A DNA stretch of 64,000 nucleotides, from assembly GCA_035576605.1 (NCBI GenBank), contig DATLWF010000196.1:9430-73429 (forward strand), in the 5' to 3' direction. The stretch comes from Blastocatellia bacterium (GTDB lineage: Bacteria > Acidobacteriota > Blastocatellia > UBA7656). Position numbers and translations under genes: made by a program. Numbering within the stretch: the stretch's first letter is position 1; each line of letters starts with the position of its first letter. Shown here piece after piece: positions 2,387 to 44,821 of this stretch. Under the pieces are notes generated by a model that was given only the letters and a program-made list of their open reading frames with translations, was not told the DNA's origin and did not search any database.

Positions 2387-2879
2387 CCTCGTTCCTATGC
2401 GATGTGGTTTCCCGCCAAAACATTTTTCCAGGCAGTCCGTTCTCGCGTTCAGAAAAGCCTCGTCCGCGGCCAAATCTGCGAATTGTATGCCAGAAGCCTA
2501 ATCAAGTTAGGGCTCCTGGGACTTTGAGGCGCTCGGCATGGGGACCTTTCGTTTTGCGAGGACTCCCGCGCTTTTTTGGTAGGAACTGCATCGGAGGTGG
2601 GAGAGCGCTCCGGCGCCTGCGGGTTTCGGATCGCGTTTGCTTTTCAATTCGAGTGTACGAAGATTGGTTCTGGCCGCGTACGCTCGAACGAGAATCGTAC
2701 GTCAAGCTCCGTTCTGCATTTCTTTTCAATGCTGTAACAAGCAGCCACAAGGTCCGTAACCTAAAGTCACCTCTACATGGATTTCTAATAGTTGAAATTG
2801 TGGCACGGATACAAAAACTCGAGTGCGAGAACAACAGTGTTCTTGATAGGAGTTATTAGACTGCAGATTTGCAGGCGGG

Positions 2880-3587
2880 CTAAACCGGTTCCAACCACTC
2901 ACGCTGTCTTACTTGTGAACAGTTCTTGTCGGCGACAAACGCCGCTATGTGCCCAGCCAAACCACGGATCCGGTGCAATGACCACCGGCAGCTTTCCTGC
3001 GGACCTGCTTCTGAGTCAATTAATTCTGGCTTTCCGGTGAACGAGACTTCGAACGAGTTCAATGGACGAGAGAGCCCTTCGCCGGTTGCTTTGACGTATG
3101 CCTCTTTGCAGACCCAGTACGTCAGAAACGCCGTACTCTTTTCACTGGGGTTGAGTCGGCGAATAGAAGCAGCCTCCGCAGGAGAGAAAAAGCGCTCGGC
3201 GAGCTGGTCCACTTCAAGATCCTGGCCTTCGCGCTCAACATCTATGCCAACCTCCACATCCGATGCAATTGCATACAGGACCAGCTCTCGTGACCGAGAC
3301 AGGTTGAACGTCAATGCATTCTCATATGGGTTGGCAAGGACAGGTTTCCCATTCGGCGTAGTCGAGAAACGGATCTCGCGCGGCTCAACGTCAAGATATC
3401 GACCAAGGATGGTTCTGAGTAACGCGCGTGACACGACGAAGCGTGCGAAGTGTTCTCGCACGCGAAGCCGTTCAGCCCTCTCGCGTTCATCGTTCGCAAG
3501 CTGGGTCAACAAGCGGGCGAGCATTGCCGGCCGTCCCAAAGCGGCGCTCCAAACGTGAACTTCACCTTGCTTTAACTGTAAATCCAT
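2880..3587 (-). CDS. 4'-phosphopantetheinyl transferase, Sfp/EntD type
   Basis: Motifs GEVHVW, GKPV, FNLSRS (FNxSHS-like), GIDVE and WVCKEAYVKATG. The ORF-track start at 3614 is TTG. ATG at 3587 (MDLQLKQGEVHVW) is preferred. Lies 26 nt downstream of the NRPS stop. Confidence 0.75.
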   Translation of the reverse strand: MDLQLKQGEVHVWSAALGRPAMLARLLTQLANDERERAERLRVREHFARFVVSRALLRTILGRYLDVEPREIRFSTTPNGKPVLANPYENALTFNLSRSRELVLYAIASDVEVGIDVEREGQDLEVDQLAERFFSPAEAASIRRLNPSEKSTAFLTYWVCKEAYVKATGEGLSRPLNSFEVSFTGKPELIDSEAGPQESCRWSLHRIRGLAGHIAAFVADKNCSQVRQREWLEPV

Positions 3588-3640
3588 CCGCGCCCGGCCC
3601 TCGAGGAAAACCAATACCGCGTCGTTGTTCCAGCGTGCGT

Positions 3641-6600
3641 CTAAGGCAGGTCAGTCAATTCGGACCGTGACTCTTCGAGACACCTCTTCAACGTCTCAGC
3701 CAGCTGGCGCACATGATTCGTCACGCACGTAATATGTCCGCCGGGAACCGTTTGAACGTCCACCGTCGTAGCTACTCTGCTCCATCCCGCAGTTGGATCG
3801 CCGTCTTCCAGCGCCAATTCTGAAGGCCACACGACAGTAACTCGGCCGCGATACGGTGCAGGGACGTATCCCTGGATCGCTCTAGAGTAGGCGGCAGTCG
3901 CACGCTTCCGCCCGTCGACTGGAATCGAGGCGTTGATGTCAGATCCCATCGGCGCGCCTTGCGAATTACCGTTTCTTTGAATGGAGGCAAACGCCACGGC
4001 CAGGTTTGCCGCCGCTGTCCAGCTTTTCTTCTTGATGAAAGCGATTCGCTCATCTGTCTGCAGTCGCAAGAATTCTGTAAGCCGGGCTCTGTAGTAATCC
4101 TTTATCTCCTGAACACGGGTAAGTCGCTCCCGGTATGCAAGGAAGCGATCCAGCCGTTGCTCGCTTCCCAGCTTGTCAAGATCGCTCAAGCGATTAACTA
4201 CCTTGTGGAGAAGCTTGAATCGAAGCGCGTTTCTCACAGAAGCGCAAAGAAGGACAAGCATATCGATCTTCTCACCCTGGGACTGCAATAGTCGCGCGAT
4301 CTCGAACGCCACTGCCGCGCCGTTACAATAACCGCCTAACAAGTACGGCCCTCGCGGCTGAAACTCCCGAAGCGCCGGCAGGTGGCTTTCGGCCATCGCC
4401 TCGATTGTCGAAGGAATCGGGCCCCCATCCAGTCCGTGGGGCTGAATTGCATAGAACGGCTGGTCATCTCCGAGTCCGTGCGCGAGATTTTGGCAATAAA
4501 ACCCGCCGCCGTTGAAATCGCCATGCAGGAAGAAAAACGGCCGCTTTGATCCTCCCTTGCCGATCTTAACAATGGCTGAGTGAGTCCGGGCCGTCTCTTG
4601 CTCGAGTATCGTAGCCGCTAGATGCTCGATGGTCGCCTCTTCGAATAGAGTCGCGAGTGGAAGCTGTCGCCCGGTTACTTGCTCGATCCGCCCCATCATT
4701 CGAACCGATAGGAGCGAATGCCCGCCCAGCTCAAAAAAGTCGTCTCGTATGCCGACCGGAGTTACCTTCAAGATTTCTTCCCAGATCTCGACGAGCTGTC
4801 GCTCAAGCGGATCTCGTGATCGAACATACTTATCGTTCGGAATAATCTGCGTTGAATCCGGCGCCGGCAATCTTGTGCGATCCACCTTTCCACTATTTGA
4901 GATCGGCAACTCATTCAGCGCTACGAACAAAGACGGAACCATGTATCCGGGAAGCTTCTTCTTCAAGAAGCTGCGCAATTGATCTCGGAGCTCGCTTTGC
5001 GCGAATGAATCGGCGCTTCCACGCGGCACAACGTAAGCCACAAGTCGTTTTTCACCGGGTTGGTCCTCTCTGGCGATGACCATGGCATCGTGGACGTCCG
5101 GGCTGGAGCACAGCGCTGTCTCAATCTCTCCCAACTCGATACGGAAGCCGTTTACCTTGACTTGATCGTCTATCCGACCAGCGATTTGAATATTGCCGTC
5201 GGGAAGATACAGTGCAAGATCACCTGTCTTGTATAACCGCGCGAAAGGCTCAGCACTGAACGGATCTGGTATGAATTTCTCTGCGGTGAGGTCAGGATGA
5301 TTCAGATATCCGCGGGCAAGGCCGGCTCCCCCGATGTGCAACTCGCCAATTACACCAACAGGAGCTGGTTGATGATGTCGGTCAAGGATATAAACTCGAG
5401 CATTGGGAATGGGTCGCCCCACCGGCGCATCCGAGACTCCAGCAGTTGATGGCTTCGGTTTCGATAAGTCCGCAATCGTAGCAACGATGGTCGCTTCGGT
5501 TGGCCCGTAGGTGTTCAGGAGCCGCACGCCTGAAGGAATGCGCTCGTGCCAGGCGGCCATTCGCTCGGGGAGGGCTCGCTCTCCTCCGATGATGACCAGC
5601 CGTGTCGTTTGAGGCAACGACAATCCTTCAGCAACAAGGCTGGTAGTCAGTTCGTGCCAAAAAGCCGTCGGCAAATCCAGCACAGTTATGCCCCAGTCTG
5701 TGCACTGCCGCAAGAATCCCGAGATAGACTTCAGCATAGCGTCAGTACGCAAGACAAGGGTTGCGCCTCGCGCGAGGGAGGAATAAATCTCTTCGGCGCT
5801 AGTGTCGAAGCTGCTGGAGGCGAATTGCAATACTCGATCGCCGGGGGTTATGCCGAATTCGTCGCTCGCGAAATCTATGTAGTTAGTTAAAGAGCGATGC
5901 TCTATCAGGACCCCTTTCGGTGTTCCCGTAGAGCCGGAGGTGTAGATCAGGTATGCGAGATTCTCGGGGGTCACACGGCGGGGCGGATTCTCGGTCGAAT
6001 GCCGACCGATCACCTCCCAGTCTGAATCAAGACAGATTACGCGCGCATCGGTTGCGGGTAGTTCCCTGGCGAGTTGCTCCAGGGTCAACAGCACCGGGGC
6101 GCTCGAATCTGCAAGCATCGCCGCCAATCGTTCTGTCGGATAAGCACTATCCAGCGGCACGTAGGCGCCACCGGCCTTCAAAATACCCAGCAAGCCCACG
6201 ATCATCTCAGTCGAACGACCTACCAACAGGCCAACCAGCTTCTCGGGCCCTACGCCGAGCGATGTCAGATAATGCGCCAGTTGATTAGCCCGCCTGTTTA
6301 GTTCGCCATAGGTCAATTGTGCGTTCGCGCAGATGACCGCAACCGCGTCCGGCGCCTTCGCCGCTTGCTCCTCAAACATCCGGTCAACCGAAGTCCGCGG
6401 TGAGTTGATTGAGTTATTGCTGTTCCATTCGACGACGATCTGATGTCGTTCGGCGGCCGTAAGCATCGGCAATGTCGAGACTGGTTCGTGGACGTAGGAC
6501 GACATGCCTTCAAGCATTGTCATCAAGTGTCCGAGCATTCGTCGGACCATTGCTTGGTCAAAACGTTGTCGGTCATATTCGATCTTCAGCAATAAGGTCT

Positions 6601-7825
6601 CGCCCGACCAGCCCGAGAGCGAGAGCGGGTAACTGGTCTCTTCGAAAAGCTGCAAGTCGCGAATCTCCCAGTTGGTCCAATGCGATTGAATCAGCGACTG
6701 AAGGTCGTAATTCTCGAACATCAGAATGCTGTCAAAGAGCGGCCTTCTGCTAATCACTTCAGACCATTCTTGAATTTTGGGCAGCGGAGTGTTTTCGTAT
6801 TCCCGCAGATTCAGATGTTGCGCCCGGAGTTCCTTGAGCCAGGAGCTAAGGGGTTGGTCTTCCGGAACGGTCACACGAATGGGCAGCGTGTTTATGAACA
6901 GACCAACAGATTCAGCGCCGTCGGATGAGCCCCGACACGCCCGTATCCCTCCAAACACAACATCCGCCTCGCCGCTATAGCGGCTGAGGAGCAGCGCCCA
7001 CGCAGCTTCCACCAGGGTGTAAAGCGTGACGCCGTTTTCCAAGGCAAGCGTTTTCAGCGTTGAAGTCAGAGCCGCCGTCAACCGAATCGCCTGCTCGTCG
7101 TGACCGGTCTGATCTCCCGAAATCGCACCGGGGTTCCGGGCCTCCGGAAGCGGAGTGGGACTGGTAAACCCGCTCAATGTGCTGCGCCAGAACCGCTCGG
7201 CTCTACTCATATCGATCTGTTGGAGACTCTCGATATGCTCACGAAACGGACGCGGCGGCTCTAAGCAGAGAGACGCGTCGTCACAAAGCGCCTCATAAAA
7301 CGCGTGAGTCTGACGCAGAACCTCGACAAGCGATCGGCCATCGAGCAACAGGTGATGAAACGTCAATACGAAATGAAAATCGCGCTCGCCGATATGAAAC
7401 AAGCCAATCCTCATCAACGGCGCCCGCGTTAGATCAAACCCCCTTGTACGATCGTTCTGAAGATAATCCTCGAGCCGCGCTTGCTGATCGACAGACCGCA
7501 CGGAACGCCAGTCCTCGTGGTGCAGTTTCAGGTGAGCAAGCGCGTGAACTTCCTGGTGAGGCTCATCGAGACCATCCCAGCGAAAGCTCGTTCTTAGAAT
7601 CGGATGCCGGTCCACAACCTGCCGCCATGCCCTCGCAAAGGCTTCTATGTCGAGATTGGCGTGAATAGTAAAAAGGAATTGCTCGATGTCAACGCCCGGC
7701 TCCCGAGCGTAAAGCGTATGAAAGAGCATCCCCTGTTGAAGCGGCGAGAGTGCATATGAGTCTTCAATTGCGCGGTGCCCCGGCATTCCGATTGGTTTTT
7801 CCGGTTCAACGGCGATGACGGTCAT
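3641..7825 (-). CDS. Single-module nonribosomal peptide synthetase, C-A-T-TE
   Basis: C domain HHLLLDGRS. A-domain core motifs LAYLIYTSGSTGTPKGV, YKTGDLA, GRIDDQVKVNGFRIELGEIE, NSGKVDR. Carrier motif LGGHSLL. C-terminal alpha/beta-hydrolase TE with GGYCNG in place of GxSxG (Cys codon TGT at 4325-4327, minus strand) and a distal GGH. Confidence 0.9.
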   Translation of the reverse strand: MTVIAVEPEKPIGMPGHRAIEDSYALSPLQQGMLFHTLYAREPGVDIEQFLFTIHANLDIEAFARAWRQVVDRHPILRTSFRWDGLDEPHQEVHALAHLKLHHEDWRSVRSVDQQARLEDYLQNDRTRGFDLTRAPLMRIGLFHIGERDFHFVLTFHHLLLDGRSLVEVLRQTHAFYEALCDDASLCLEPPRPFREHIESLQQIDMSRAERFWRSTLSGFTSPTPLPEARNPGAISGDQTGHDEQAIRLTAALTSTLKTLALENGVTLYTLVEAAWALLLSRYSGEADVVFGGIRACRGSSDGAESVGLFINTLPIRVTVPEDQPLSSWLKELRAQHLNLREYENTPLPKIQEWSEVISRRPLFDSILMFENYDLQSLIQSHWTNWEIRDLQLFEETSYPLSLSGWSGETLLLKIEYDRQRFDQAMVRRMLGHLMTMLEGMSSYVHEPVSTLPMLTAAERHQIVVEWNSNNSINSPRTSVDRMFEEQAAKAPDAVAVICANAQLTYGELNRRANQLAHYLTSLGVGPEKLVGLLVGRSTEMIVGLLGILKAGGAYVPLDSAYPTERLAAMLADSSAPVLLTLEQLARELPATDARVICLDSDWEVIGRHSTENPPRRVTPENLAYLIYTSGSTGTPKGVLIEHRSLTNYIDFASDEFGITPGDRVLQFASSSFDTSAEEIYSSLARGATLVLRTDAMLKSISGFLRQCTDWGITVLDLPTAFWHELTTSLVAEGLSLPQTTRLVIIGGERALPERMAAWHERIPSGVRLLNTYGPTEATIVATIADLSKPKPSTAGVSDAPVGRPIPNARVYILDRHHQPAPVGVIGELHIGGAGLARGYLNHPDLTAEKFIPDPFSAEPFARLYKTGDLALYLPDGNIQIAGRIDDQVKVNGFRIELGEIETALCSSPDVHDAMVIAREDQPGEKRLVAYVVPRGSADSFAQSELRDQLRSFLKKKLPGYMVPSLFVALNELPISNSGKVDRTRLPAPDSTQIIPNDKYVRSRDPLERQLVEIWEEILKVTPVGIRDDFFELGGHSLLSVRMMGRIEQVTGRQLPLATLFEEATIEHLAATILEQETARTHSAIVKIGKGGSKRPFFFLHGDFNGGGFYCQNLAHGLGDDQPFYAIQPHGLDGGPIPSTIEAMAESHLPALREFQPRGPYLLGGYCNGAAVAFEIARLLQSQGEKIDMLVLLCASVRNALRFKLLHKVVNRLSDLDKLGSEQRLDRFLAYRERLTRVQEIKDYYRARLTEFLRLQTDERIAFIKKKSWTAAANLAVAFASIQRNGNSQGAPMGSDINASIPVDGRKRATAAYSRAIQGYVPAPYRGRVTVVWPSELALEDGDPTAGWSRVATTVDVQTVPGGHITCVTNHVRQLAETLKRCLEESRSELTDLP

Positions 7826-7832
7826 GGCGTTA

Positions 7833-8996
7833 TCAAGTCAGTCGCGCGGGAGCTACTTCACTGGGTGGATCCAGCTCGATCACGTCGTACAGCTCGCGGA
7901 CCGCGCGCGCGGTCGCCATGCCCGGTTCATAGAAGAGCTCACTGGCCACCGCCCGCCGCGAAGCCGACTGGGAGTACGAATCGCCAAAGCATCTTTCGAC
8001 CGCGGCAATTGTTTCGCCAACATCTCGGACGGTTATCGATGCTTCGCGCAACAAATCTACATATTCAGGGTTGATGTCCGTTCTCGCGATGAGTTCCGGA
8101 ATGTCGATTCGAACAACCGGGCGATCAAGCAAAAGGTATTCGAACCCGACCGAACTGTGATCGGTGATCAATACGTCGGCCGCGGCGAGATAAGGACAGG
8201 CGTCGCTGCCATCAGCCAGCCATCCGCCACCGCGCCGAAGGATCGGTTCGAGGCGCGCCGCCCAGTCGATGCCGCCGGAATGTTTGTATTGCAGATCGCG
8301 GGACCGATCGTGCAGCTTGACGATCACCGCATAACCCGCGGCCACAAGCTTCTGCACCAGAGCTTCTCCCATCACGTTGAGCGATGAGTAAGGAGACCAT
8401 GTTGGCGCATAGAGAACCGTGCGCCTCGCAGGGTCGATGCCAAGCTCATCGAGCACGTCATCTCGACTAAGCGATCCATCGACCAGACAGTCAAGCTTTG
8501 GATAGCCGACCAGTCGCGCCGCCGGGCTATCGGCGTCAATGGCGCCCACACGGATGTAGTTTTCCATCCGTCGACGATTGATGAAAAACAGGCGGTCCCA
8601 GTCGCGCATCGAGCGGTCCGGGGTGTCATAAACGCGGCTGTACTTGCCAGCCACGCCGTGAAACATTTGAATGCGCCGCGTGCCCCTGGGGAGTGTCACC
8701 CATAGCATGTCGGCGACCAGGTACGCGCTGAATTTCATCAGCGCGGCGCGCGCCGGGCTTACGAGGTTGACATTGCCTCCGATCTCGCCATAAATCGTCT
8801 TCGCCGCGGACGGCTGTTCGCTCGCCGTGAAGAAGAACGTCACTCGCGAGTCTTGCATAGCGCGATAAATTGGAACAATGACCGCGGAGTTCATCGCCGT
8901 TCGCGCGTTGACCAGAACGCAGCGACCCGGGTGGATTCGCCGCTGCCATCGCGTATCCGTTTGCTGCACCCATTTCGTGATGTTGCTCAGAGGCAT
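7833..8996 (-). CDS. CDP-alcohol:polymer polyol-phosphate transferase, TagF/TagB/TarL family
   Basis: VLYAPTWSPY and VLITDHSSVGFEYLLLDRP match the TagF catalytic-domain signatures (LYAPTWR ... ITDYSS). ATG at 8996, 7 nt upstream of the NRPS start. Confidence 0.7.
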   Translation of the reverse strand: MPLSNITKWVQQTDTRWQRRIHPGRCVLVNARTAMNSAVIVPIYRAMQDSRVTFFFTASEQPSAAKTIYGEIGGNVNLVSPARAALMKFSAYLVADMLWVTLPRGTRRIQMFHGVAGKYSRVYDTPDRSMRDWDRLFFINRRRMENYIRVGAIDADSPAARLVGYPKLDCLVDGSLSRDDVLDELGIDPARRTVLYAPTWSPYSSLNVMGEALVQKLVAAGYAVIVKLHDRSRDLQYKHSGGIDWAARLEPILRRGGGWLADGSDACPYLAAADVLITDHSSVGFEYLLLDRPVVRIDIPELIARTDINPEYVDLLREASITVRDVGETIAAVERCFGDSYSQSASRRAVASELFYEPGMATARAVRELYDVIELDPPSEVAPARLT

Positions 8997-9008
8997 TCGA
9001 CGTCTCTT

Positions 9009-9791
9009 CTAAAAGCGTTCGCCGATAGCAGTTGTGGCAAAGGCAAGTGGGCGATCGAAAGTCAATTCCGCCTTTTCAATTTCAGGCAAGATCTCGCTAA
9101 TCGCTCGGTCGTAGTCCTCGGGAAAATCAATTTCGATCCAGGGCAATCCGCGCGTGCCGATGGCGTGCAGCGGCCGGACACGAGCAAATTCGCGGAATGC
9201 CCGCGGCGCCCATTCCCGGTCTGTTCCTTTCGCGATCAGCATCCCCATTTGTCTCGTGAGAATCGCGGCGCCGCGCGAACCGAATTTTACAATGCCGACA
9301 TTCTCACCATCTGCCTCATCGGGATTAATCGCTTTGCTTATGTCCACAACCCGTCCCGCTCTAACTTTGACCTTCATTTCTTCGTCTCCAAACCGAGCGG
9401 TTGTCTCGTCTTTATAGGCAATCAACAGCGCGTCCTCATAACGAGCGGTCAGCAGGTCAGTAATCAGTTGTGGGTGATAGAGCACGTCTGAGTTCAGAAC
9501 CACGAACCCATCGACAAGCCGATGTCTTGCAAGCCAGAGCGAGTAGAGGCTGCTTGTGCGGAAGAAGATAGGATTCTCGATATACTCGATATCAGGCCCG
9601 CACTCCCTTCGCACTGTGTCGGCGGAGAACCCGACCACTGCGCTTATGTGGTCGATGCCGGACTCACGAAGCGTCACAATCTGACGCTCGATGAGCGAGA
9701 GCGCTCCGACCCTTGCGAGGCACTTCGGCTTATCGCCGGCGACTCCTCTCAACCGTGATCCTTTGCCTGCTGCAAGAATGATCGCGTTCAT
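9009..9791 (-). CDS. Sugar/polyol-phosphate nucleotidyltransferase (LicC/TarI/IspD-like cytidylyltransferase fold)
   Basis: N-terminal MNAIILAAGKGSRL nucleotide-binding motif. C-terminal LPWIEIDFPEDYDRA. RBS AAGGAG upstream of ATG 9791. Confidence 0.7.
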   Translation of the reverse strand: MNAIILAAGKGSRLRGVAGDKPKCLARVGALSLIERQIVTLRESGIDHISAVVGFSADTVRRECGPDIEYIENPIFFRTSSLYSLWLARHRLVDGFVVLNSDVLYHPQLITDLLTARYEDALLIAYKDETTARFGDEEMKVKVRAGRVVDISKAINPDEADGENVGIVKFGSRGAAILTRQMGMLIAKGTDREWAPRAFREFARVRPLHAIGTRGLPWIEIDFPEDYDRAISEILPEIEKAELTFDRPLAFATTAIGERF

Positions 9792-9806
9792 CTGTGTTCC
9801 AGCTCC

Positions 9807-11384
9807 TTAAGCGGCCGCGGCCGCACTCGCTCGTTTCAAGAGCTCTCTTACCTTCGCGAAATACCACTGTCTCTCTTCGCGATCGATTGCCAGCATTAGA
9901 AATACCGCCAGGTAGATTAATCCAGCGGTTATTGCCTGAAGAGCGATCGCAGGGAGATTCACGCTGATGACGTTTCGGGTGATCGCGAGAAACGACGCCA
10001 TAACGACTAACGGCCAGAGCGGAGGGAAGATTGCGGTCTTCAGGGCCTCACGCGTACTCAACTGCACTCTCCGGCAAGCCGCCGGGAACAGCACGAAGAT
10101 AGATACGGAACCCACCGCGATCAGAGTGCCAAGCGCTACGCCAATCAACCCAAGATGGCGAACCAGAACAATGCTCATGGCCAGGTTTGCAAGGGCGATT
10201 AACAGGTTCGATGTCGCCAGCAGCCTGTGTTGACCGGCGCCTTTCAGCAATGTCGTCGCTGTTGAATTCCCCACGCGGATTGCAACCGCAATAGTCAGAA
10301 TGTGAATGATGGGCACGCTGCCTGCAAAGTCAGGTCCCACCCACGCCAATACCAGAGGCTCGGCAAGCAGGCTCAAACCGGTCGCAATGGGAACAACCAT
10401 CGCCAGCGATATGCGAGTGCCCTGTATGAACAATTGTCGCAGCCGGTCAGCTTGCCCAACGGTGGCGGTATCCACAATGATCGGAAACATGGCTCCGTTC
10501 AATTGGCCGGTGACGATCTGGACTGCCTCAATCAACCGCTGTGCGACTGCCCAAATCGCAATCGAGACGGTGCCCATAAAGGCGCCTATCACTATCGCAT
10601 CTGTTGAGTAGTTAACCTTGTTTGCAAGGTCAATCAATAATATGAAGGCGCTAAACCCGGTGACCTCGCGCAGTCGCGCCAGCCGCACGTTAGACAGGCG
10701 AATTCGCAAACCGGGATAGGCCCGGTAGGCGTTTAACGCATAGCCGATATGACTCAGCGCACGAATCGTTGTAGTTGCAGCGACCAGTTCCACGAGGCCG
10801 TATCCGCCCAGGAGCACCGCTACATTGACACACGCCACCACGATGCTGGTCGAGATGGATACGGAGCCGTTAAGATAGTGGCGCTGAAACCCGTTTACGA
10901 TTCCACCGAACACGCTGACGGGAAAGCCAAGCGCGACGTAGGCGCTGATTATTAGCAGAACCTGTCGGCCGATATCGGCTTGTGCCGGGGTTATGTTGAA
11001 AAACTTTTGCAGATTGAAAGCCAAGAAGGCGCCGATTGCAAAGGCAATCAGTCCTATGACGCAGAATCCCAGAAAGAGACTGCTCACAATTTGATTGAGG
11101 CCTTCACTGTCACGGCGAGCGCGGTACTCCGATGCGAATTTCACCTGAGCGACCCCATACCCGAGGTCTAGCATGGAAAAGTACGCTGTTACGGAGGCGA
11201 CGAGAACCCATAGCCCGTAGGTAGACGGTCCCAGGCGTCCCATATTGAAAGGGAGCATCACCGCGCCGATCAGGACGTCAACCCCAAGGGCAACATAGTC
11301 CATCGAGATGTTTCGGGCGAAGATGTCGAGCTGATTGAACTCGCGCCCCCATACCGGATCGCCTTCGGCTCTGGCCTTGCTCAC
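9807..11384 (-). CDS. Polysaccharide biosynthesis membrane protein, Wzx/PST (MOP superfamily) flippase-like
   Basis: 525 aa, about 12 hydrophobic segments throughout. GTG start at 11384 overlaps the stop of the upstream GT2 (GTGA); an alternative ATG lies 27 codons in. Confidence 0.65.
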   Translation of the reverse strand: MSKARAEGDPVWGREFNQLDIFARNISMDYVALGVDVLIGAVMLPFNMGRLGPSTYGLWVLVASVTAYFSMLDLGYGVAQVKFASEYRARRDSEGLNQIVSSLFLGFCVIGLIAFAIGAFLAFNLQKFFNITPAQADIGRQVLLIISAYVALGFPVSVFGGIVNGFQRHYLNGSVSISTSIVVACVNVAVLLGGYGLVELVAATTTIRALSHIGYALNAYRAYPGLRIRLSNVRLARLREVTGFSAFILLIDLANKVNYSTDAIVIGAFMGTVSIAIWAVAQRLIEAVQIVTGQLNGAMFPIIVDTATVGQADRLRQLFIQGTRISLAMVVPIATGLSLLAEPLVLAWVGPDFAGSVPIIHILTIAVAIRVGNSTATTLLKGAGQHRLLATSNLLIALANLAMSIVLVRHLGLIGVALGTLIAVGSVSIFVLFPAACRRVQLSTREALKTAIFPPLWPLVVMASFLAITRNVISVNLPAIALQAITAGLIYLAVFLMLAIDREERQWYFAKVRELLKRASAAAAA

Positions 11385-12487
11385 TTTGCCCCCGCCCTCT
11401 GCGCTGAAGCACTCGGCTCGATCGATTGTGCTGTTGAGGAGGAGTTTTGCCTGGTCACATATACATCTGGCGGAACCCGGTCACCGCCCGCGAGCGAAAC
11501 ATCGACTGCGTTGCCGGTCGCTCCGTCGCGTTTGCGATCCTTAAATCGCTGCCTGACAATGCCCGCGAAGAACCACAACCAAAGCTCATGCTCGAATGCA
11601 GCCACCCGATCACGATGCACCTCGGCGCTAATCATGCTCTTGAACGCTCGTAGAGAAGACCGATACATATAGCGCGGGACGCCACCTATATGCGGGACTC
11701 TCGAGTAATCGAGACTTGTTTCTTCCGGCGCCTCCATATCGACTCTTGATTGCGCATAAAGCATCGCACGACTTACGCCGTGCCAATAGAACCACCGACG
11801 AAAATACCGTTTAGTCAGTCGGTCTGCCGGGATGATGTGGTGGACTGTCATTTCGGGGGCATAGAAACCCGCGAGGCCGGCCGCCCGCGCTCTCAGTCCC
11901 CACTCGCGCACTTCTTGACCGAGCAAAGTGCCGGCCTTGCGACCTACACGGTTGTCCCACAATCCGGCGCGCTCGAACGCTTCTCGGCGAAAAGCTATGT
12001 TCACGCCGAGGGGCATCAGCCTGCTAAACTCGAATGGCTCGGCGCCATAGTCGAGCAAGGCGATAACCGCCCAGTGGCGTCCGCCGCGGTTAGGAAGCCA
12101 ACGCGGCCGGGGCGCGCCCCAGATCGGCAATACCTTGCCGCCTACATAATCGCAATCGAGGCGCTCCAGTGCTTCACCAGCACGATCAAGCCAGTCCTTT
12201 TCCACGCGAACGTCGTCATCCGTAGTAACGATGATCTCGCCACTTGAAGCGCGAATGCCCGCGTTCAAGGCAGCGCACCGTCCCTGCTCCGGCTCGAAGA
12301 CATACCGCAACGGAACCGGAAACCACTGCTGAGCTTCCCGAACAACCGCGTGGGTGTGGTCCGATGAGTTGTTATCCACGGTTATCACTTCCCACTTGTC
12401 TCGCGTCGACACCGCTGCAATGCTGCGGAGCGTCTGTTCCAGGTCGCTGGCGCGATTGTACGTAGCTATGACAACCGAGAATTTCAT
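11381..12487 (-). CDS. Glycosyltransferase family 2
   Basis: MKFSVVIATYNR...VITVDNNSSD...DDD motif arrangement typical of GT2. Confidence 0.8.
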   Translation of the reverse strand: MKFSVVIATYNRASDLEQTLRSIAAVSTRDKWEVITVDNNSSDHTHAVVREAQQWFPVPLRYVFEPEQGRCAALNAGIRASSGEIIVTTDDDVRVEKDWLDRAGEALERLDCDYVGGKVLPIWGAPRPRWLPNRGGRHWAVIALLDYGAEPFEFSRLMPLGVNIAFRREAFERAGLWDNRVGRKAGTLLGQEVREWGLRARAAGLAGFYAPEMTVHHIIPADRLTKRYFRRWFYWHGVSRAMLYAQSRVDMEAPEETSLDYSRVPHIGGVPRYMYRSSLRAFKSMISAEVHRDRVAAFEHELWLWFFAGIVRQRFKDRKRDGATGNAVDVSLAGGDRVPPDVYVTRQNSSSTAQSIEPSASAQRAGAK

Positions 12488-12554
12488 GATTTTACGCGTC
12501 TTACGAAATCCAATACGGAGGTCGCGCCAGTCTCTTCAAGCTGTGTCCAACCGG

Positions 12555-13742
12555 TTAGGTAAACTGCGTGGCAACGGCCGCCCGAGCTAGTGGATAGCGC
12601 GGGCTGGCGGTTGTTTCGGGCTCTCGTCTGATATTATCGCGGCTCCCCGCAGTCTCACTGATACTCATTTCCAGAGTCCTGCTGAACGCATGGAGAAATG
12701 GTATGTATTGACCGGCTCCGAGCTCTACATCGCGGATGACAGCGTCAAACAGCTGGCGATAGTGGGTCACCAGCGAATTGGAGATTCCAATCCTCCGAGC
12801 GATGGTCGTTTGTGACGGAGATGAGAGATCGAAGTAACAATACCAGGCGACTCGCGCCAGCCGGCTGTATCGACGCGGCTTGTGTCTAACCACTTCTCGC
12901 ATCTTATCCAACAGTTCCACGGCAATCGCCTCGGCCTGCTGGTTAGTTTCGTTTTCGAGAAGTCGCTGCTCAGGCGTTGGTCTCTGGTCAGGAAAATCCA
13001 CCTTGAGTGGTTCCGGGTCCGAGACGGCGTCAGGCGTTACCGCTGCATCAATGGAAACAAACCGCGAATCTTCCACCGGCAGCTTGGACAACGCCAGAGA
13101 TCTTACAATTCGAACATCCAGCGGCGAGTCCACCGCCCTGAATATCTCGACTAAGAGATCAGTCAGATCCCGATTCGAAATAATTATGTGCGAGCTGCCG
13201 CCCCTTCCCGCTCGCCTCCGGTCACGTCCTCTATAAGCAACGTCCTTTAGCAAATCCTCCATGTTTTGATGGGCCCTTGTCGGCTTGTCGTCAGGCCATT
13301 CTCTCAACCCGAAAACCCTCGTGCTTAACTTGCCCTCGGAGTGGTTGGCTCCAAGTGTGCGCCGATATCTGCGAAACTCAGCGCTGGTTTGGACCAGATT
13401 GCTGATGCGGCGCGCCATCCGGTACGCTTCCGGCTGTCGCTCGCGCAACAGCAGCGAAACCAGGTTGGGAACTTCAATATGGTAAAGTTCATGCTCAATA
13501 TTCGCATTCGAATAGCCGGCGTCTACGTAATGCCGCCAGCGATCCTTCCGGTGGAGCTTTAGGAATAGATCTTGAGTCACATCCGCGTTCAGATCCTGTA
13601 GCCGTGCGCGCGCGATTCTGTCTGAGTTGAACAGAGTCCTGATTGACGAATGTCTCGATACTAACTTGAACAGTTTGTCCCACAATGCTGCAGCGTCATT
13701 GTCGGTAAGAATTTCAATCCAGCCCCTTGCTTGCTCGTTCAT
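12555..13742 (-). CDS. Hypothetical regulator: N-terminal sigma-70 region-2-like segment and C-terminal HTH separated by a long insert
   Basis: N-terminus WIEILTDNDAAALWDKLFKLV...DVTQDLFLKL resembles ECF sigma region 2. C-terminus TTIARRIGISNSLVTHYRQ is HTH-like. About 200 aa of basic/low-complexity sequence lie between. Confidence 0.35.
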   Translation of the reverse strand: MNEQARGWIEILTDNDAAALWDKLFKLVSRHSSIRTLFNSDRIARARLQDLNADVTQDLFLKLHRKDRWRHYVDAGYSNANIEHELYHIEVPNLVSLLLRERQPEAYRMARRISNLVQTSAEFRRYRRTLGANHSEGKLSTRVFGLREWPDDKPTRAHQNMEDLLKDVAYRGRDRRRAGRGGSSHIIISNRDLTDLLVEIFRAVDSPLDVRIVRSLALSKLPVEDSRFVSIDAAVTPDAVSDPEPLKVDFPDQRPTPEQRLLENETNQQAEAIAVELLDKMREVVRHKPRRYSRLARVAWYCYFDLSSPSQTTIARRIGISNSLVTHYRQLFDAVIRDVELGAGQYIPFLHAFSRTLEMSISETAGSRDNIRREPETTASPRYPLARAAVATQFT

Positions 13743-14109
13743 TCCTGTTTCCCACTACTATGAGTTGATCTTGAACCGTCCACCATCGATTACTATCCGA
13801 TGTGCTTACGGGTAGGAAGCAAAAGTAGTGCCGTCAAGTTGGCTTACTCCCCCGGGGAAACCTACCGATGTGCCGGTTGAAGTCATCAATTTTTTCAATT
13901 ACAAATTTCTCGGGTGTTGTGCGAGATATGAACAGATACCCTTGCTCCTTACTAAGGAAAAGCTCTCGATCGCAGTTCGGCTCGGCGGAACGTCACGCTC
14001 GACGAAACTAGACTCCAGTGAGACTCCGATGAAGCACCTGCCAAAACAGGAGGCTCGCTCAGGTCCGACCGGCGAACTGTCTTAATTCACTTCGAGGCGG
14101 TGTACTGAA

Positions 14110-14979
14110 TTATGTAATGGAACCGGCCACCTGACCGTAGACAGGAAGGTCGGGGCGCGAGAGATCACTCGGCGTGATGTCCAGAGCTTCGATCACGTCG
14201 GCTATTATGTCGCGGAAAATCGTCGCCTGGCCCGCAGCGTAACCATACAACAGCGCGTTATCGCAGATGTTATTGATCACCCGCGGTATTCCGGCGGACG
14301 CCAGGCCGATCAATTCGATTGAGGACGGATCAAAGATATTGACCCGCCCAGCTCCGGCAATCCTCAGTCTGAAGCGAATGTAGTTATTGATCTCGTACAA
14401 ATATAGCGGCCTGATTGAACAGCGCAGCGATACCCGCTGCTTAAGCTGTCGCAGTCCGGGCTGATTCAGAATCTCCCGAAGCTCGGGCTGGCCGCAAAGA
14501 ACTATTTGCAAGAGCTTTTCGCTGTTTGTCTCAAAATTCGCCAGTAGCCGCACCTCTTCCAGCACGGCCGGCGAGAGCCCGTGCGCCTCATCTATGATCA
14601 GAACAGTGCGCAAACCGCGTGAGTGTCGTTGCGCCAGACAGGCGCCTATTGCATTCAAGAGGTCTGCCTTCGAAGCGGTTGAGCCGAGACCGAGATTGAG
14701 ACCGCCTGAGAGGAGTTGGAAAAACTCTGCGACCGTCACGAACGGATTGAATAAGTACACTGATAGAATGTCTGGACCGAATTGCTGCAGAACCGACCGC
14801 AAGGTGGTCGTCTTACCTGTGCCGACTTCGCCCGTGACGACCGCGAGCCCTTTGCTCTGTGATATACAATATTTCAGATTTGACACTACCTCCAGATGGC
14901 TGTCGGTTTTGTAGATGAACTTTGGATTTGGGGTTAATCCAAACGGTATCTCTTTGAGCCCATAAAACTCCGTGTACAT
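14110..14979 (-). CDS. ExeA/GspA-like AAA ATPase (PEP-CTERM locus secretion-ATPase type)
   Basis: MYTEFYGLKEIPFGLTPNPKFIY N-terminus, Walker A VTGEVGTGKTT, Walker B VLIIDEAH. ATG 14979 directly follows the upstream kinase-like gene's TAG (14980-14982). Confidence 0.8.
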   Translation of the reverse strand: MYTEFYGLKEIPFGLTPNPKFIYKTDSHLEVVSNLKYCISQSKGLAVVTGEVGTGKTTTLRSVLQQFGPDILSVYLFNPFVTVAEFFQLLSGGLNLGLGSTASKADLLNAIGACLAQRHSRGLRTVLIIDEAHGLSPAVLEEVRLLANFETNSEKLLQIVLCGQPELREILNQPGLRQLKQRVSLRCSIRPLYLYEINNYIRFRLRIAGAGRVNIFDPSSIELIGLASAGIPRVINNICDNALLYGYAAGQATIFRDIIADVIEALDITPSDLSRPDLPVYGQVAGSIT

Positions 14980-16653
14980 CTATCGTTCCCCCAGTCGAAA
15001 ATATCTACTGTCGGTATCCCCATACCGGCGCAAATACCGTGTAGGCCGCCGCCATTTGGCCTTGCCCTGGCGAAGGCGCTGCGACGTAGATGACGGTCTC
15101 GCGACAGGTTGCGGACGAACCGCGGCTCTTGCCTGAGTCGTGGCGCCCTGAGCGTTAGCCGGCTTGGCCTCCTGGTGTGTTTCGGCAGGCGGCTGATGGT
15201 CGCCGGCAGGCGGCGGACTGGTGACTACCGGCTTTTCTCCCGTTCCCTTGGAAGAGGGCAGGGCCGCCGTGCGATCGATGCCGGCATCGCTGCCCTCGGC
15301 CGTCGGTTCCGAAACTGTCCGATTTGGGAACCTGGAACGGTCAGCGCGTGCGAGTATTAATATCCCGATTAATGCCGCAATCGCCATCGCTAGGACCAGC
15401 ATCACCGGTCTCCATTGACTGCGTAATGCGAACGTCGAGCTTAGTTCATGGCTTAGCAGCACATCGCGTGGTGTTTCGAGGCGCTCATTCGAAGGCGGAT
15501 CTGGTTCTCTTTCCTCATCTACGGTCTCGGTCCCCAGATCCAGGGTATGAACCTGATCAACCGGCGACTCGATCACCCTGATCGACGGCGGCTCCCACGG
15601 TTCACGGCTCGCGCCATCCAAGAGGCTCTCCAGTTCGATAGGACTTTGGTCGTCTTCGTATCCAATGTCCAACGGTTGCGACTCACAACCATCGCTCCAG
15701 CCCGCCATGGTAGGAGGTTGACTTGTCGAGCGGTCCAGCGCCTCACGGAAGGAAGTCACATCTTGAAATCGTTTGTTGGGGTCTTTTTCAAGCATGCGCG
15801 TGATAATCGCCGACAACGAAAACGGGATATCCGAGCAATAAAGATGTGGTGCCCGGGGCGAATGGGTCACATGCCTTTGCCTGACAGTGTCAGGGTCTTC
15901 CGAATCTACCGGCAGCCGATCGGTGAGCATCTGGTAGAAGACGACTCCCAGGGAATACAGATCGCTGCGCGCATCGAGCGCTTCTCCACGTGCCTGTTCG
16001 GGACTGATATAGTGCAAGGGACAGGCGCTGGCGCGCTCTTTGTGCGCCCAGGCAAGATCGCCACGGGCCTCCACCCCGAAGTCGGATAGCAAGGCTGCGC
16101 CATCCGTGCCAATTAGAACGTTTTCGGGATGAACGCTGAGGTGGAGAACCCCGAGCGAATGGGCATAGTCGAGCGCATCGGCGATCTGTAGAACGATTCC
16201 TAGTGCGAGCCCAAGGTCAAGCCAGCCCCGGCGGTCCAGCAACATTTTTAATGTCTCGACGTCGGGCCGACGCTCCAAAATTGAGAAATGTGTGCCGTTG
16301 ATCTCCTGAGGTCCGCTTGATCTGACAATATTGCGGTGCGATAGCCTTGCGGCCGCTGATGCCTCCAGACGAAACAACTCTAGTCGCCTTAGATCGTCAC
16401 CGTGCGCATGCAGGACCTTTAAGGCTACCGGTCTATCATCGCGCCGATCGCGTCCATGGTAGACGGCAATACCGCCCCGATCGCTCACCAAACTGAGACA
16501 ATCGAATCTACTGGACAAAACCTCGGTAGTATCGCACTCGGTAGTATCGCAGACGCTTCCACCATTGGTAGGCGTTTTTGAGACAGGTGCCAGGGCGCTA
16601 GCCAAGTTCGGATCGTTGGTGCCGGCTGCTTTTTGGAGTTCAAACCCGCTCAT
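14980..16653 (-). CDS. Membrane-anchored Hanks-type Ser/Thr protein kinase-like protein, predicted pseudokinase
   Basis: Kinase subdomains present: ALKVL (beta3 Lys), LSDFG, SPEQ, DLYSLGVVFYQMLT. The catalytic loop reads GVLHLSVHPENVLI instead of HRDLKPEN; Ser codon AGC at 16135-16137 replaces the catalytic Asp. One TM segment PVMLVLAMAIAALIGILILA, then a Pro/Ala-rich C-terminal tail. Confidence 0.75.
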   Translation of the reverse strand: MSGFELQKAAGTNDPNLASALAPVSKTPTNGGSVCDTTECDTTEVLSSRFDCLSLVSDRGGIAVYHGRDRRDDRPVALKVLHAHGDDLRRLELFRLEASAAARLSHRNIVRSSGPQEINGTHFSILERRPDVETLKMLLDRRGWLDLGLALGIVLQIADALDYAHSLGVLHLSVHPENVLIGTDGAALLSDFGVEARGDLAWAHKERASACPLHYISPEQARGEALDARSDLYSLGVVFYQMLTDRLPVDSEDPDTVRQRHVTHSPRAPHLYCSDIPFSLSAIITRMLEKDPNKRFQDVTSFREALDRSTSQPPTMAGWSDGCESQPLDIGYEDDQSPIELESLLDGASREPWEPPSIRVIESPVDQVHTLDLGTETVDEEREPDPPSNERLETPRDVLLSHELSSTFALRSQWRPVMLVLAMAIAALIGILILARADRSRFPNRTVSEPTAEGSDAGIDRTAALPSSKGTGEKPVVTSPPPAGDHQPPAETHQEAKPANAQGATTQARAAVRPQPVARPSSTSQRLRQGKAKWRRPTRYLRRYGDTDSRYFRLGER

Positions 16654-25950: not shown

Positions 25951-25955
25951 AGCGA

Positions 25956-28777: not shown

Positions 28778-28794
28778 TCTCCTTTCAATGGCGT

Positions 28795-31329: not shown

Positions 31330-31350
31330 CAACAGATTCCTCAGCGAGTC

Positions 31351-43794: not shown

Positions 43795-43804
43795 GACTGC
43801 ATTC

Positions 43805-44821
43805 TCAATTAGAGGCTCCGGCCGCCACTCTTCTACCAGCAATGACAAGGCGATTCTTTACTTGCTCGAATCCGCTGGTGGATTGAAGAAAGCGGGCGAA
43901 ATTGTTGTCTGTGTGCACTCGGCGCAGCCTTAACAGATCGCTGTCAATTCCGTTAAGACCAGCTTCGACCGTTACCGCGCATCTGTAACCGGCGGCGCGG
44001 ACCGCGCGCGCGACGCGCTCGTCGTAATCGCCGTTTGGATAGCAGAAAAGATCGACTTCGCGGTTAAGCATCGCTTCCAGCCGCGAGCGTGAATCACAAA
44101 CTTCCATTCGCAGGCGCCCATCGCTCACTCTGGTCAGTATGGGATGAGTGGCGGTGTGCGAGCCGATTTGCACTCCGGCGGCATCCATCTCGCGCGCCTG
44201 CGCCCAGGAAATCGGCCCAAACTCGGCGGGCGGCGTGCCCGGCAGACGAACGCCGAGCAACGTCGCAATTTCGAAGATGACGTGATCCTTCAGGTCATCG
44301 GGCGCCAGTTTCAGCGCGGAGTTGATCCGTGCCGCAGCTTCCAGACGCAAGGCGGGCCCGTCCAGCTTCAAGCTCAACACGCGATTGTTTATCGTTATGT
44401 CAAGGTTCTCAGTCTTCGAGTGAGTTACCAGAAAGCGCACTTTGTCAGTCCACAGCCATACCTTTCGATCGACAAAATCGGTCACGACAAAAAGCGTGGC
44501 CGGCGCGTTGAACTTGCGAAGAATGGGAAAAGCAATCTCATAAGCATCCCGGTAGCCGTCATCGATCGCGATCGCAGCGATGCCTGCCGGCAGAGCCTGG
44601 CCACGCGACAAATGCTCAGCGACCGTGGCGAGAGGAACAATCCTGTAGCGGGTCGTCAGGTAACGCAGTTGCTCGTCGAATGCGCGGGCGGAAGTTGTCT
44701 CTCCCTCGCCGGAGCGACTGAACCGATGGTAGGTCAGTATCAGCGCCTTGTCCCGATTGGCTATCCGAAAGGGAGTAAAAGCACCCGCAACTCGCATCAG
44801 ATGTAGCATTGTTTTCTTCAT
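43805..44821 (-). CDS. Polysaccharide deacetylase (CE4 family)
   Basis: AIDDGYRDAY...LFVVTD...GSHTATHP motifs. ATG 44821 shares its A with the TGA of the upstream formyltransferase gene (TGATG). Confidence 0.8.
   Translation of the reverse strand: MKKTMLHLMRVAGAFTPFRIANRDKALILTYHRFSRSGEGETTSARAFDEQLRYLTTRYRIVPLATVAEHLSRGQALPAGIAAIAIDDGYRDAYEIAFPILRKFNAPATLFVVTDFVDRKVWLWTDKVRFLVTHSKTENLDITINNRVLSLKLDGPALRLEAAARINSALKLAPDDLKDHVIFEIATLLGVRLPGTPPAEFGPISWAQAREMDAAGVQIGSHTATHPILTRVSDGRLRMEVCDSRSRLEAMLNREVDLFCYPNGDYDERVARAVRAAGYRCAVTVEAGLNGIDSDLLRLRRVHTDNNFARFLQSTSGFEQVKNRLVIAGRRVAAGASN

Follow-up and report, generated by a model that had tools for sequence, protein, structure and literature searches.

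Within a 64,000-nucleotide stretch of a Blastocatellia metagenome-assembled genome (Acidobacteriota; GenBank assembly GCA_035576605.1, contig DATLWF010000196.1, positions 9,430 to 73,429), referred to below as the window, a nucleotidyltransferase gene and a TagF-like phosphotransferase gene were found side by side in an exopolysaccharide (EPS) locus. It is considered probable, with moderate confidence, that the pair makes a nucleotide-activated compound, CDP-X, and moves X-phosphate to a glycan, most likely the lipid-linked EPS repeat unit. Transfer of CDP-activated X-phosphate was taken as the best reading because of the membership of one enzyme in the TagF family, the origin of its partner in a CTP-using clade, the coupling of the two genes and their location in the EPS locus of a diderm host. 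The two-gene observation itself was confirmed as real and far beyond chance, and the pair forms part of a conserved module composed of a family 2 glycosyltransferase (GT2), an optional Wzx flippase, the nucleotidyltransferase, the TagF-like enzyme and a secreted phosphodiesterase of the phospholipase D (PLD) superfamily carrying TIG domains.

The nucleotidyltransferase open reading frame (ORF) occupies positions 9009-9791 of the minus strand (260 aa; N-terminus MNAIILAAGKGSRL) and is preceded by an AAGGAG ribosome-binding site, and the TagF-like ORF lies at 7833-8996 of the same strand (387 aa); both coincide exactly with the coordinates given in a first-pass annotation of this DNA. That annotation described the pair as back-to-back, which was wrong: the genes are co-directional and in tandem, with the nucleotidyltransferase upstream. 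Gaps in this part of the module are tight, with 15, 12 and 7 nt separating the Wzx, nucleotidyltransferase, TagF-like and nonribosomal peptide synthetase (NRPS) genes, respectively. The first-pass annotation had passed over the other members of the cassette, among them the GT2, the dedicated Wzx, the lysine-type NRPS with its phosphopantetheinyl transferase and the secreted PLD-type phosphodiesterase. A promoter and terminator scan of positions 2200-14200 returned fewer sites than were found in shuffled controls; otherwise uninformative, it is consistent with one transcription unit.

By profile, predicted fold and motifs, the TagF-like gene product is a genuine TagF-family enzyme. Pfam family PF04464 (Glyphos_transf; CDP-glycerol:poly(glycerophosphate) glycerophosphotransferase) was matched with an E-value of 9.5e-22 and a score of 77.9 bits (gathering cutoff 22.1), the match spanning residues 36-367 and model positions 29-363 of 367, and the LYAPTW and ITDHSSV motifs on which the family had initially been proposed were both located (residues 195-200 and 277-283). 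Sequence searches of solved structures with this protein recovered TagF and the Cps3D domain that resembles it, with a weak match to TarL. An AlphaFold2 model (pLDDT 84.2) was compared with known structures using Foldseek, and the best 12 matches were all TagF chains (E ~3e-12, template modelling (TM) scores of 0.60-0.67), followed by Cps3D, TarL and Bcs3, with generic GT-B enzymes appearing later. The two-Rossmann (GT-B-like) fold of the model superimposes on TagF, with which the protein shares 16-18% identity. At 387 aa it corresponds to the bare catalytic domain, without the tetratricopeptide repeats (TPR) or extra domains of capsule polymerases. Its homologues number in the thousands, an identical sequence being annotated in a Blastocatellia (Acidobacteriota) MAG, and a tblastn search against plasmids returned only remote Firmicutes and Bacteroides matches (25-28% identity) with no useful context.

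The catalytic pair of TagF is formed by H444 and H584 (PMC5974469, citing Schertzer 2005 and Lovering 2010). In the window protein, H113 lies in a Q-M-F-H-G motif following the strand at 107-110 and H229 in a V-I-V-K-L-H-D motif following the strand at 223-226; each was invariant in 21 out of 21 homologues, and both motifs are kept (as Q-I-F-H-G and K-P-H-D) in a sister subfamily sharing 32-35% identity. Mapped at the motif level only, H113 and H229 are plausible counterparts of H444 and H584. A short-peptide search of the PDB with the H113 region, aimed at TagF H444, gave a single irrelevant match.

The nucleotidyltransferase is a predicted CTP:X-phosphate cytidylyltransferase, producing CDP-X, and by sequence it belongs to the LicC/PntC/IPCT/CpgD clade, within which it falls in a large uncharacterised subfamily. 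Pfam returned PF12804 (E 2.8e-13) and PF00483 (E 1.4e-06), and a profile of the family searched against the PDB matched LicC (9e-23), PntC over its full length (5e-19) and IPCT (about 1e-11), with sugar-1-phosphate enzymes at 1e-10 or weaker and only over the N-terminal nucleotide-binding part. The best Foldseek match to the AlphaFold2 model (pLDDT 86) was PntC (TM 0.82), followed by IPCT-DIPPS and LicC. The earlier description of an IspD/TarI/LicC-fold cytidylyltransferase thus survives for the LicC fold and not for the TarI/IspD type, as the window protein had no match to the IspD model PF01128 at E<=0.01, weak precomputed matches to it being present in some homologues only. A TagD identity was likewise rejected, the HIGH-motif domain PF01467 being found neither by Pfam in window ORFs of at least 150 aa nor in the called genes of related loci. 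The base-recognition segment (T-N/S-S-L-Y-S-L) is one that we take to be LicC-like and unlike the P-L-G-T-A-G of enzymes using UTP or dTTP.

When 1.84 billion representative proteins were searched with the family profile, 1161 clusters (50% identity) were assigned to the subfamily at E<=1e-30. Invariant positions of the family include G9, R13, K23, N100-S-D102, M139, K153 and W194-A-P196, together with E220 and D222; D102 is the conserved Mg-binding aspartate. The clade signature G-x-G-x-R-L...K is present as LAAGKGSRL (G9, G11 and R13) with K23, and R13, K23 and D102 correspond to R16, K26 and D112 of IMPCT/CpgD. Common to nearly all of the 150 best clusters were N80, N100-x-D102, E-x-M139-K, K153, E-N and W194, position 80 being serine in the window protein and asparagine in most family members; IPCTs deviate at these signature columns (M/T in A. 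fulgidus, C/S in T. maritima). All characterised clade members (LicC, PntC, IPCT, Cj1416 and CpgD) use CTP and non-sugar phospho compounds, namely phosphocholine, 2-aminoethylphosphonate (AEP), inositol-1-phosphate, phosphoglutamine and, for CpgD, phosphoglycerate (PMC12275187).

Two sets of pocket residues bear on the nature of X. The acidic residues that bind the amine of the substrate, D105 and D192 in LicC and E104 and E196 in PntC (PMC6697681), are absent from the present family, in which the same columns hold N100 and P196 (of W-A-P) in every member. Plasmid-borne relatives of 30-36% identity adjoin Ppm, Ppd and AEP-transaminase genes or a LicD gene, and these relatives retain aspartate or glutamate at the amine columns (D; E-Y-E or H-E). 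The residues reported to contact or cap glycerate in CpgD are N90, N110, M147, K161 and W201 (PMC13228409), and their spacing, with N110-G-D112, is mirrored by N80, N100-x-D102, M139 and K153 (14 apart) and W194. CpgD itself, sought among the 150 best clusters by a residue-number fingerprint, was absent, the best match agreeing at 5 of 11 positions. The CpgD-like pocket is best treated as a lead, not a test.

The association of the two genes was examined with a signature-peptide scan of one genome per species, in which both of two TagF-like signature peptides were found in 213 species. The best 80 of these 213 genomes were all Acidobacteriota (Blastocatellia and Pyrinomonadaceae, with a few labelled Terriglobales or Vicinamibacterales). 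Among loci with enough flanking sequence, 69 of 73 had the nucleotidyltransferase gene as the immediate upstream neighbour of the TagF-like gene, and all 73 had it within 10 kb. The upstream GT2 orthologue was present in 60 of 60 loci, with Wzx between it and the nucleotidyltransferase in 35 of them; the secreted PLD/TIG orthologue lay at most 10 kb away in all 33 loci for which both flanks were available; and an NRPS gene lay downstream in 10 out of 50. Natural nucleotidyltransferase::TagF-like fusions accounted for five of the 150 clusters (P0283, P0382, P0357, P0385 and P0370), the TagF parts of P0283 and P0382 sharing 30-32% identity with the window protein (E 1e-32 to 1e-36). The largest, P0370 (1773 aa), joins a nucleotidyltransferase, a TagF-like domain, two GT2 domains and TPR, and in P0246 a GT2 is naturally fused to the nucleotidyltransferase. 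The nucleotidyltransferase and TagF-like genes were also adjacent in Planctomycetota and in one cyanobacterium. Near-universal adjacency and natural fusions indicate that the two enzymes are functionally coupled, and because such Rosetta-stone fusions are accompanied by synteny across phyla, it is very likely that this nucleotidyltransferase subfamily supplies the donor to its TagF-like partner.

The arrangements outside the Acidobacteriota differ in their surroundings. In two Planctomycetota loci (L092, 7133-10980, and L094, 6476-10128), a gene for an MsbA/CydC-type ABC exporter is followed by those for the nucleotidyltransferase and TagF-like enzyme, which in L092 are fused in one 659-aa protein; exosortase EpsH and EpsI genes lie about 8 kb upstream in L092. 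TagF-like proteins fused to an ABC membrane domain were also seen (P0434, P0442, P0466 and P0473). The cyanobacterial (Xenococcaceae) locus L095 (5881-11207) encodes the nucleotidyltransferase, an APH kinase of protein-kinase fold, the TagF-like enzyme and a second TagF-like protein, with a glycerophosphodiester phosphodiesterase (GDPD; GlpQ-family) gene and a major facilitator superfamily transporter gene divergently upstream. NCBIfam gave only a weak match of this kinase to an LxmK-like protein-kinase fold; its presence implies a dedicated step from X-OH to X-phosphate.

From these observations we infer the nucleotide used, X, the acceptor, single as against repeated addition and the parts played by the NRPS and PLD proteins as follows. 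[quoted passage not shown] The TagF-like enzyme, through its two conserved histidines, would then transfer X-phosphate to a sugar hydroxyl with release of CMP. The acceptor would most likely be an undecaprenyl-diphosphate-linked EPS repeat unit, built with the help of the adjacent GT2; it is the genomic context that points to this unit rather than to another lipid-linked molecule. The glycan would thereby gain an anionic, teichoic-acid-like group in phosphodiester linkage, either as a substituent or as a unit within the chain. The Wzx dedicated to the module would flip the modified repeat unit, and Wzy, Wzz and Wza of the type associated with XrtA would then polymerise and export it. In the Blastocatellia lineage, the NRPS would probably attach lysine close to the phosphate through an ester or amide bond, analogous to the D-alanylation of teichoic acids, and outside the cell the secreted PLD protein (often a PLD-AcpA fusion) would probably trim or recycle the phosphodiester.

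X is suggested, with low certainty, to be a small neutral or acidic C3 unit, such as sn-glycerol-3-phosphate or perhaps, in the manner of CpgD, 2- or 3-phosphoglycerate. A C3 unit is favoured because the pocket residues resemble those of CpgD, because the donors of PF04464 enzymes are CDP-polyols (CDP-glycerol or CDP-ribitol in all that have been characterised) and because the closest folds to the TagF-like protein are glycerol-phosphate enzymes. Since N100 and W194-A-P196 replace the acidic residues of LicC and PntC, X is probably not choline, aminoethylphosphonate or ethanolamine. No TagD, TarI/J, GpsA, dedicated kinase, Ppm or LicD was found in the window (Pfam) or in the flanks of 85 loci, and with no supply genes nearby, X-P is probably either drawn from general metabolism or produced by genes at another site in the genome. 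The initial proposal that a CDP-activated alcohol phosphate is added to the polysaccharide is accordingly upheld as to transfer from a CDP-X donor, whereas glycerol phosphate or ribitol phosphate as the group transferred was not established, there being no genes for their supply. A phosphonate was rejected for this neighbourhood, as a search for Ppm, Ppd, AEP transaminase (AEPT) and LicD in the window and the 85 loci matched only the nucleotidyltransferase-like C-terminus of a Ppm fusion.

Several points weigh against the proposed transfer of X-phosphate from CDP-X to an EPS unit. An HMMER pairwise alignment places TagF H584 six residues downstream of H229, and the likeness to CpgD rests on published residue numbers and not on an alignment. 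Known Gram-negative systems use TagD-type enzymes, and we know of no characterised glycerol-3-phosphate cytidylyltransferase within the LicC/PntC/IPCT/CpgD clade. The cyanobacterial kinase hints that X-OH may need a dedicated kinase, and the acidobacterial module has no counterpart of it. The sister modules of the Planctomycetota come with an MsbA-type ABC exporter and without a glycosyltransferase, so that in some lineages the acceptor class may be a lipid. Finally, no more than about 20% of loci encode the NRPS, whose condensation domain is of the elongation type, yet no donor or upstream module is visible in the window.

A different explanation of the extent of addition makes the TagF-like enzyme a polymerase that, either by itself or in turns with the GT2, would assemble chains of poly(X-phosphate) or poly(glycosyl-X-phosphate), a true teichoic-acid-like polymer in place of one substituent on each repeat unit. 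The closest folds are those of the polymerases TagF, Cps3D and TarL, a GT2 gene is always adjacent, and P0370 shares the multi-domain and TPR architecture of TagF-like capsule polymerases (PMC5974469). The window enzyme, however, consists of the catalytic domain only, with neither TPR nor an N-terminal extension, its locus uses Wzx/Wzy block polymerisation together with a module-specific Wzx, and there is no ABC exporter of the TagGH or KpsMT type, as processive cytoplasmic polymerases normally need. Chain building was judged unlikely.

The acceptor might instead be a membrane lipid, a lipid-linked primer or a lipopolysaccharide-like molecule modified by a pair that merely sits beside EPS genes. 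The Planctomycetota modules, consisting only of an MsbA/CydC-type exporter, nucleotidyltransferase and TagF-like enzyme, are in keeping with this, as are the TagF-like relatives fused to ABC_membrane, the service of CpgD, of the same clade, to a sphingolipid head group and the standing of secreted PLD- and phospholipase C (PLC)-type enzymes as classical lipid phosphodiesterases. In the Acidobacteriota, by contrast, a GT2 gene invariably flanks the pair and Wzx often does so, and EPS genes lie on both sides of it in two different gene orders. The PLD protein also has TIG domains, although a carbohydrate-binding-module-like stretch, read by eye, is the sole hint that it binds glycan. Modification of a lipid or glycolipid was regarded as distinctly unlikely.

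Were the nucleotidyltransferase to make CDP-choline, CMP-2-aminoethylphosphonate or CDP-ethanolamine, as in Lic- or Pnt-type systems, the TagF-like enzyme would place a zwitterionic head group on the glycan. Such a donor is suggested by the best solved relatives, LicC and PntC, by the NCBI and JGI labels of homologues ('phosphocholine cytidylyltransferase family' or 'choline kinase') and by the AEP or LicD clusters around the nearest annotated plasmid relatives (30-36% identity). It was nevertheless considered very unlikely, in view of the replacement of the amine-binding acids by N100 and P196 in all family members (PMC6697681), the retention of D or E in relatives from AEP and LicD contexts, the absence of LicD, choline kinase or transporter, Ppm, Ppd and AEPT from the window and the 85 loci, and the lack of any known example of a TagF-family enzyme using such donors.

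Least probable of all, and highly improbable, is activation of a hexose or hexosamine 1-phosphate followed by Stealth-type transfer of sugar-1-phosphate by the TagF-like enzyme: weak NCBIfam matches of the nucleotidyltransferase to archaeal GlmU-type, MurU and AglF models and the fold of the cyanobacterial kinase, presumably that of the anomeric sugar kinases AmgK and NahK, speak for it, but these matches are far below cutoffs and mainly confined to the N-terminal nucleotide-binding third, full-length sequence and fold are nearest to non-sugar CTP enzymes, the base-recognition segment is LicC-like and not of the UTP/dTTP type, and PF04464 transfer of sugar-1-phosphate is without a known example.

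Downstream of the pair, a single-module NRPS with condensation, adenylation, thiolation and thioesterase (C-A-T-TE) domains is encoded at 3641-7825 on the minus strand (1394 aa; Pfam, specificity code and motifs). It begins 7 nt past the stop codon of the TagF-like gene and is translationally coupled to it. The Stachelhaus code extracted from the adenylation domain, DTEDIGTIVK, is of the lysine type and differs from the lysine code of ScoA, DTEDVGTVVK (bioRxiv 10.1101/121228), by two conservative V-to-I changes only; the extraction procedure was checked on the GrsA sequence, for which it gave DAWTIAAICK. The motifs HHLLLDG and GGHSL are present, and the thioesterase nucleophile, in GYCNG, is a cysteine. 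Cysteine thioesterases are rare, examples being those of ObiF1 and SulM (PMC6668435, PMC11298585). Orthologues of the NRPS have the code D[AT]EDIGT[IV]VK, intact HHxxxDG and GGxSL motifs and a GxCxG thioesterase motif. A Sfp-type 4'-phosphopantetheinyl transferase gene follows at 2880-3614 on the minus strand (PF01648, 3.3e-19; PF22624), as does its orthologue in a second locus (L007), and presumably primes the thiolation domain of the NRPS.

Two other Blastocatellia loci (L010, ~10939-13836, and L016, ~1518-4400) encode an NRPS of about 965 aa without a condensation domain (A-T-TE, with GFCNG), whose code, DILQ[IF][CG]LIWK, we take to be of the glycine type. The existence of these A-T-TE-only variants suggests that amino-acid activation and thioesterase off-loading are the core function of the NRPS. 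A tie to the phosphodiester is suggested by the 7-nt gene spacing, and by analogy with Dlt and AlmEFG, the NRPS may serve the amino-acid tailoring of a phosphate-bearing glycan. In DltABCD and AlmEFG, the latter placing glycine on Vibrio lipid A (PMC4278540), an adenylation domain and a carrier domain likewise activate an amino acid, which could neutralise an anionic surface polymer bearing phosphate, whereas here a full C-A-T-TE NRPS with a cysteine thioesterase and a lysine code is found. No MBOAT, DltB/DltD or AlmG-like transferase was present, and off-loading would fall to the cysteine thioesterase.

The secreted PLD-superfamily phosphodiesterase lies at 1-2386 on the minus strand and runs off the start of the window. 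Its translation carries an N-terminal signal peptide, matches to PLDc_2 (7.6e-25) and IPT/TIG (5.4e-26) and two HxK...GSxN motifs; the carbohydrate-binding-module-like stretch had no match in the family library. In relatives, this protein is often fused to an AcpA/PLC-type Phosphoesterase domain, and a protein of the EEP (endonuclease/exonuclease/phosphatase) family often adjoins it (L004, L030, L086 and L087). Linkage of the PLD gene to the pair is kept in two arrangements, either downstream and co-directional or upstream and divergent. It is attractive to suppose, by analogy, that the enzyme trims the phosphodiester or recovers phosphate from it. In B. subtilis, GlpQ and PhoD are likewise extracellular phosphodiesterases with a genetic or physiological link to a surface polymer that contains phosphodiesters, from which phosphate could be recovered. 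Unlike these, the acidobacterial enzyme combines the PLD superfamily with TIG domains and is often an AcpA/PLC-type fusion, while the GlpQ-family GDPD is found in the cyanobacterial operon.

Taken together, these elements would permit a broader proposal, which is possible but doubtful as a whole: that the pair in Acidobacteriota, Planctomycetota, Cyanobacteria and Deltaproteobacteria is one system spanning these phyla, which installs on lipid-linked glycans a non-classical CDP-activated head group (e.g., phosphoglycerate or some other unit distinct from glycerol phosphate and ribitol phosphate). In the Blastocatellia this anionic group would be lysylated by the dedicated cysteine-thioesterase NRPS, giving a diderm a zwitterionic EPS decoration of teichoic-acid-like kind, and the co-inherited secreted PLD-AcpA enzyme would remodel the polymer or mine it for phosphate.

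In comparison with known systems, the TagF-like enzyme shares its family and fold, and plausibly its histidine motifs, with TagB, TagF, TarF and TarL of the Firmicutes, which operate with TagD or TarIJ. The logic of wall teichoic acid synthesis is also alike, in that a CDP donor is made beside a transferase that passes polyol-phosphate to a lipid-linked acceptor at the cytoplasmic face. The Firmicutes donor synthase, however, is TagD (PF01467) or TarI/IspD, to which the LicC/PntC/IPCT/CpgD clade is non-homologous or distant, and export in the present diderm acidobacterial host is by Wzx, Wzy and Wza. Pairing of a TagF-like domain with a glycosyltransferase in a diderm, to produce a surface glycan resembling teichoic acid, is known from Cps3D, Cps7D, Campylobacter jejuni HS1.09 and Bcs3 of Haemophilus influenzae type b (PMC5974469, PMC11924219, PMC10299916). 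Enzymes of the Cps3D type are large multi-domain polymerases of ABC-dependent group 2 capsules with TagD-type supply of activated glycerol-3-phosphate, in contrast to the stand-alone 387-aa enzyme, apparently XrtA-type Wzx/Wzy locus and different donor synthase seen here. The nearest functional precedent is provided by pneumococcal Wzy capsules containing glycerol-1-phosphate (gct) or glycerol-2-phosphate (gtp1-3 and wchX), in which a phospho-polyol side group is placed on an undecaprenyl-diphosphate (Und-PP) repeat unit by a dedicated phosphotransferase and the genes for the CDP donor lie in the locus (PMC1391919). That system differs in being Gram-positive, in having the precursor genes gtp1 and gtp2 in the locus and in lacking NRPS or PLD partners.

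The nucleotidyltransferase has its fold and catalytic signature in common with LicC, which operates with LicD, and with PntC (PMC6697681), but is accompanied by a TagF-like enzyme in place of LicD or a CDP-alcohol phosphatidyltransferase, and by no genes for choline or phosphonate supply. Caulobacter CpgD, of the same clade, similarly acts on a central metabolite and has no dedicated supply gene (PMC12275187, PMC13228409), yet it feeds CpgA, which acts on a sphingolipid (PMC9393093), whereas here a TagF-like enzyme would act on a glycan. Because CpgA is PgsA-like, CpgD/CpgA is no direct precedent for the present pairing.

Teichoic-acid-like units are established in diderm group 2 capsules (PMC5974469, PMC8262930, PMC10299916, PMC11924219). 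To call the modification an uncommon EPS decoration, as had been done, is fair, though tempered by precedents in Gram-negative and Wzy-dependent capsules (PMC5974469, PMC11924219, PMC1391919). The principle is consequently not new. What is new is the donor synthase subfamily, the occurrence of a stand-alone TagF-like enzyme in an acidobacterial Wzx/Wzy locus of apparent XrtA type, and the constant GT2 and PLD partners together with the lysine NRPS. A literature search combining Acidobacteria with glycerophosphotransferase returned nothing relevant on the module.

Few soil bacteria are more abundant than the Acidobacteriota, whose EPS chemistry is almost unstudied. If the proposed transfer of X-phosphate to the EPS unit is true, phosphodiester-linked and possibly aminoacylated groups would alter EPS charge, the binding of metals and minerals and the retention of water. 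The EPS matrix could also be a phosphorus reservoir, a reading that the always-linked secreted phosphodiesterase encourages. The LicC-fold subfamily with TagF-like partners would represent either another way of making CDP-glycerol or a novel CDP donor, and the NRPS would suggest a module that tailors a polysaccharide instead of making a peptide.

The remaining components of the module lie immediately upstream of the pair. The Wzx/MOP-family flippase gene (9807-11384, minus strand) matched PF01943 and PF13440, with an O-glycosylation flippase Wzx as the best NCBIfam match, and its start is overlapped by 4 nt by the GT2 gene (11381-12487, minus strand; PF00535, 2.4e-29; best NCBIfam match HpsE-like). 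Next come the genes for an uncharacterised 395-aa protein, a TIGR03015-like AAA ATPase and a Ser/Thr kinase (12555-16653, minus strand; Pfam and NCBIfam), a trio found directly upstream of the GT2 gene in the same order in several other Blastocatellia loci (L004, L007, L008, L086 and L087).

Between about 51.1 kb and position 1, every gene lies on the minus strand and the region reads as one long EPS locus. Genes for a Wzz-like protein, a BY-kinase-like ATPase, a priming phosphoglycosyl transferase, Wza and a Wzy/O-antigen-ligase-like protein were identified at 42277-51133 (minus strand) by Pfam and NCBIfam. The priming transferase (Bac_transf) matches TIGR03013 above its cutoff (500.5 against 393.35), while TIGR03007 (Wzz-like), TIGR03018 (BY-kinase-like), TIGR03027 (Wza), TIGR03097 and TIGR03015 were the best matches of their proteins but fell below their own cutoffs. 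The ORFs scanned across the 64 kb included no exosortase (PF09721), and window Pfam scans turned up neither TagO/TagA/TagB-type primers nor a TagGH ABC exporter. Judged by these sequence matches, the locus would be of the XrtA/PEP-CTERM-associated Wzx/Wzy EPS type in a diderm host, and the Gram-negative-style surroundings proposed in the first-pass annotation (Wza, Wzz, BY-kinase-like and PEP-CTERM-type genes) are borne out by the best Pfam and NCBIfam matches. The module lies among the same EPS genes in Pyrinomonadaceae.

Tailoring and sugar genes of the locus include those for several GT2 and GT4 glycosyltransferases, two AsnB-type amidotransferases, a UDP-sugar dehydrogenase, an acyltransferase and a methyltransferase. 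A second flippase is encoded at 28795-31332 (minus strand) as an 845-aa fusion of a GT2 with a Wzx/MOP-type domain. The gene for a PaaK/DVU_1553-like AMP-dependent ligase (27383-28951, minus strand) adjoins those for a DUF362 protein (25956-27434) and for an AsnB paralogue (24013-26004), a possible acyl- or amide-tailoring sub-cluster that recurs in one other locus (L003). A heparinase II/III-like protein of 856 aa is encoded inside the biosynthetic locus at 38468-41038 (minus strand), and its orthologue directly follows the TagF-like gene in a Pyrinomonadaceae locus (L030, 11140-13026). Two further genes of the minus strand are unrelated to the finding, one, immediately upstream of the EPS genes (51831-55115), encoding a 1094-aa protein with PKD/TIG repeats and the other a TPR-CHAT protein at the far end of the window (61758-63911).

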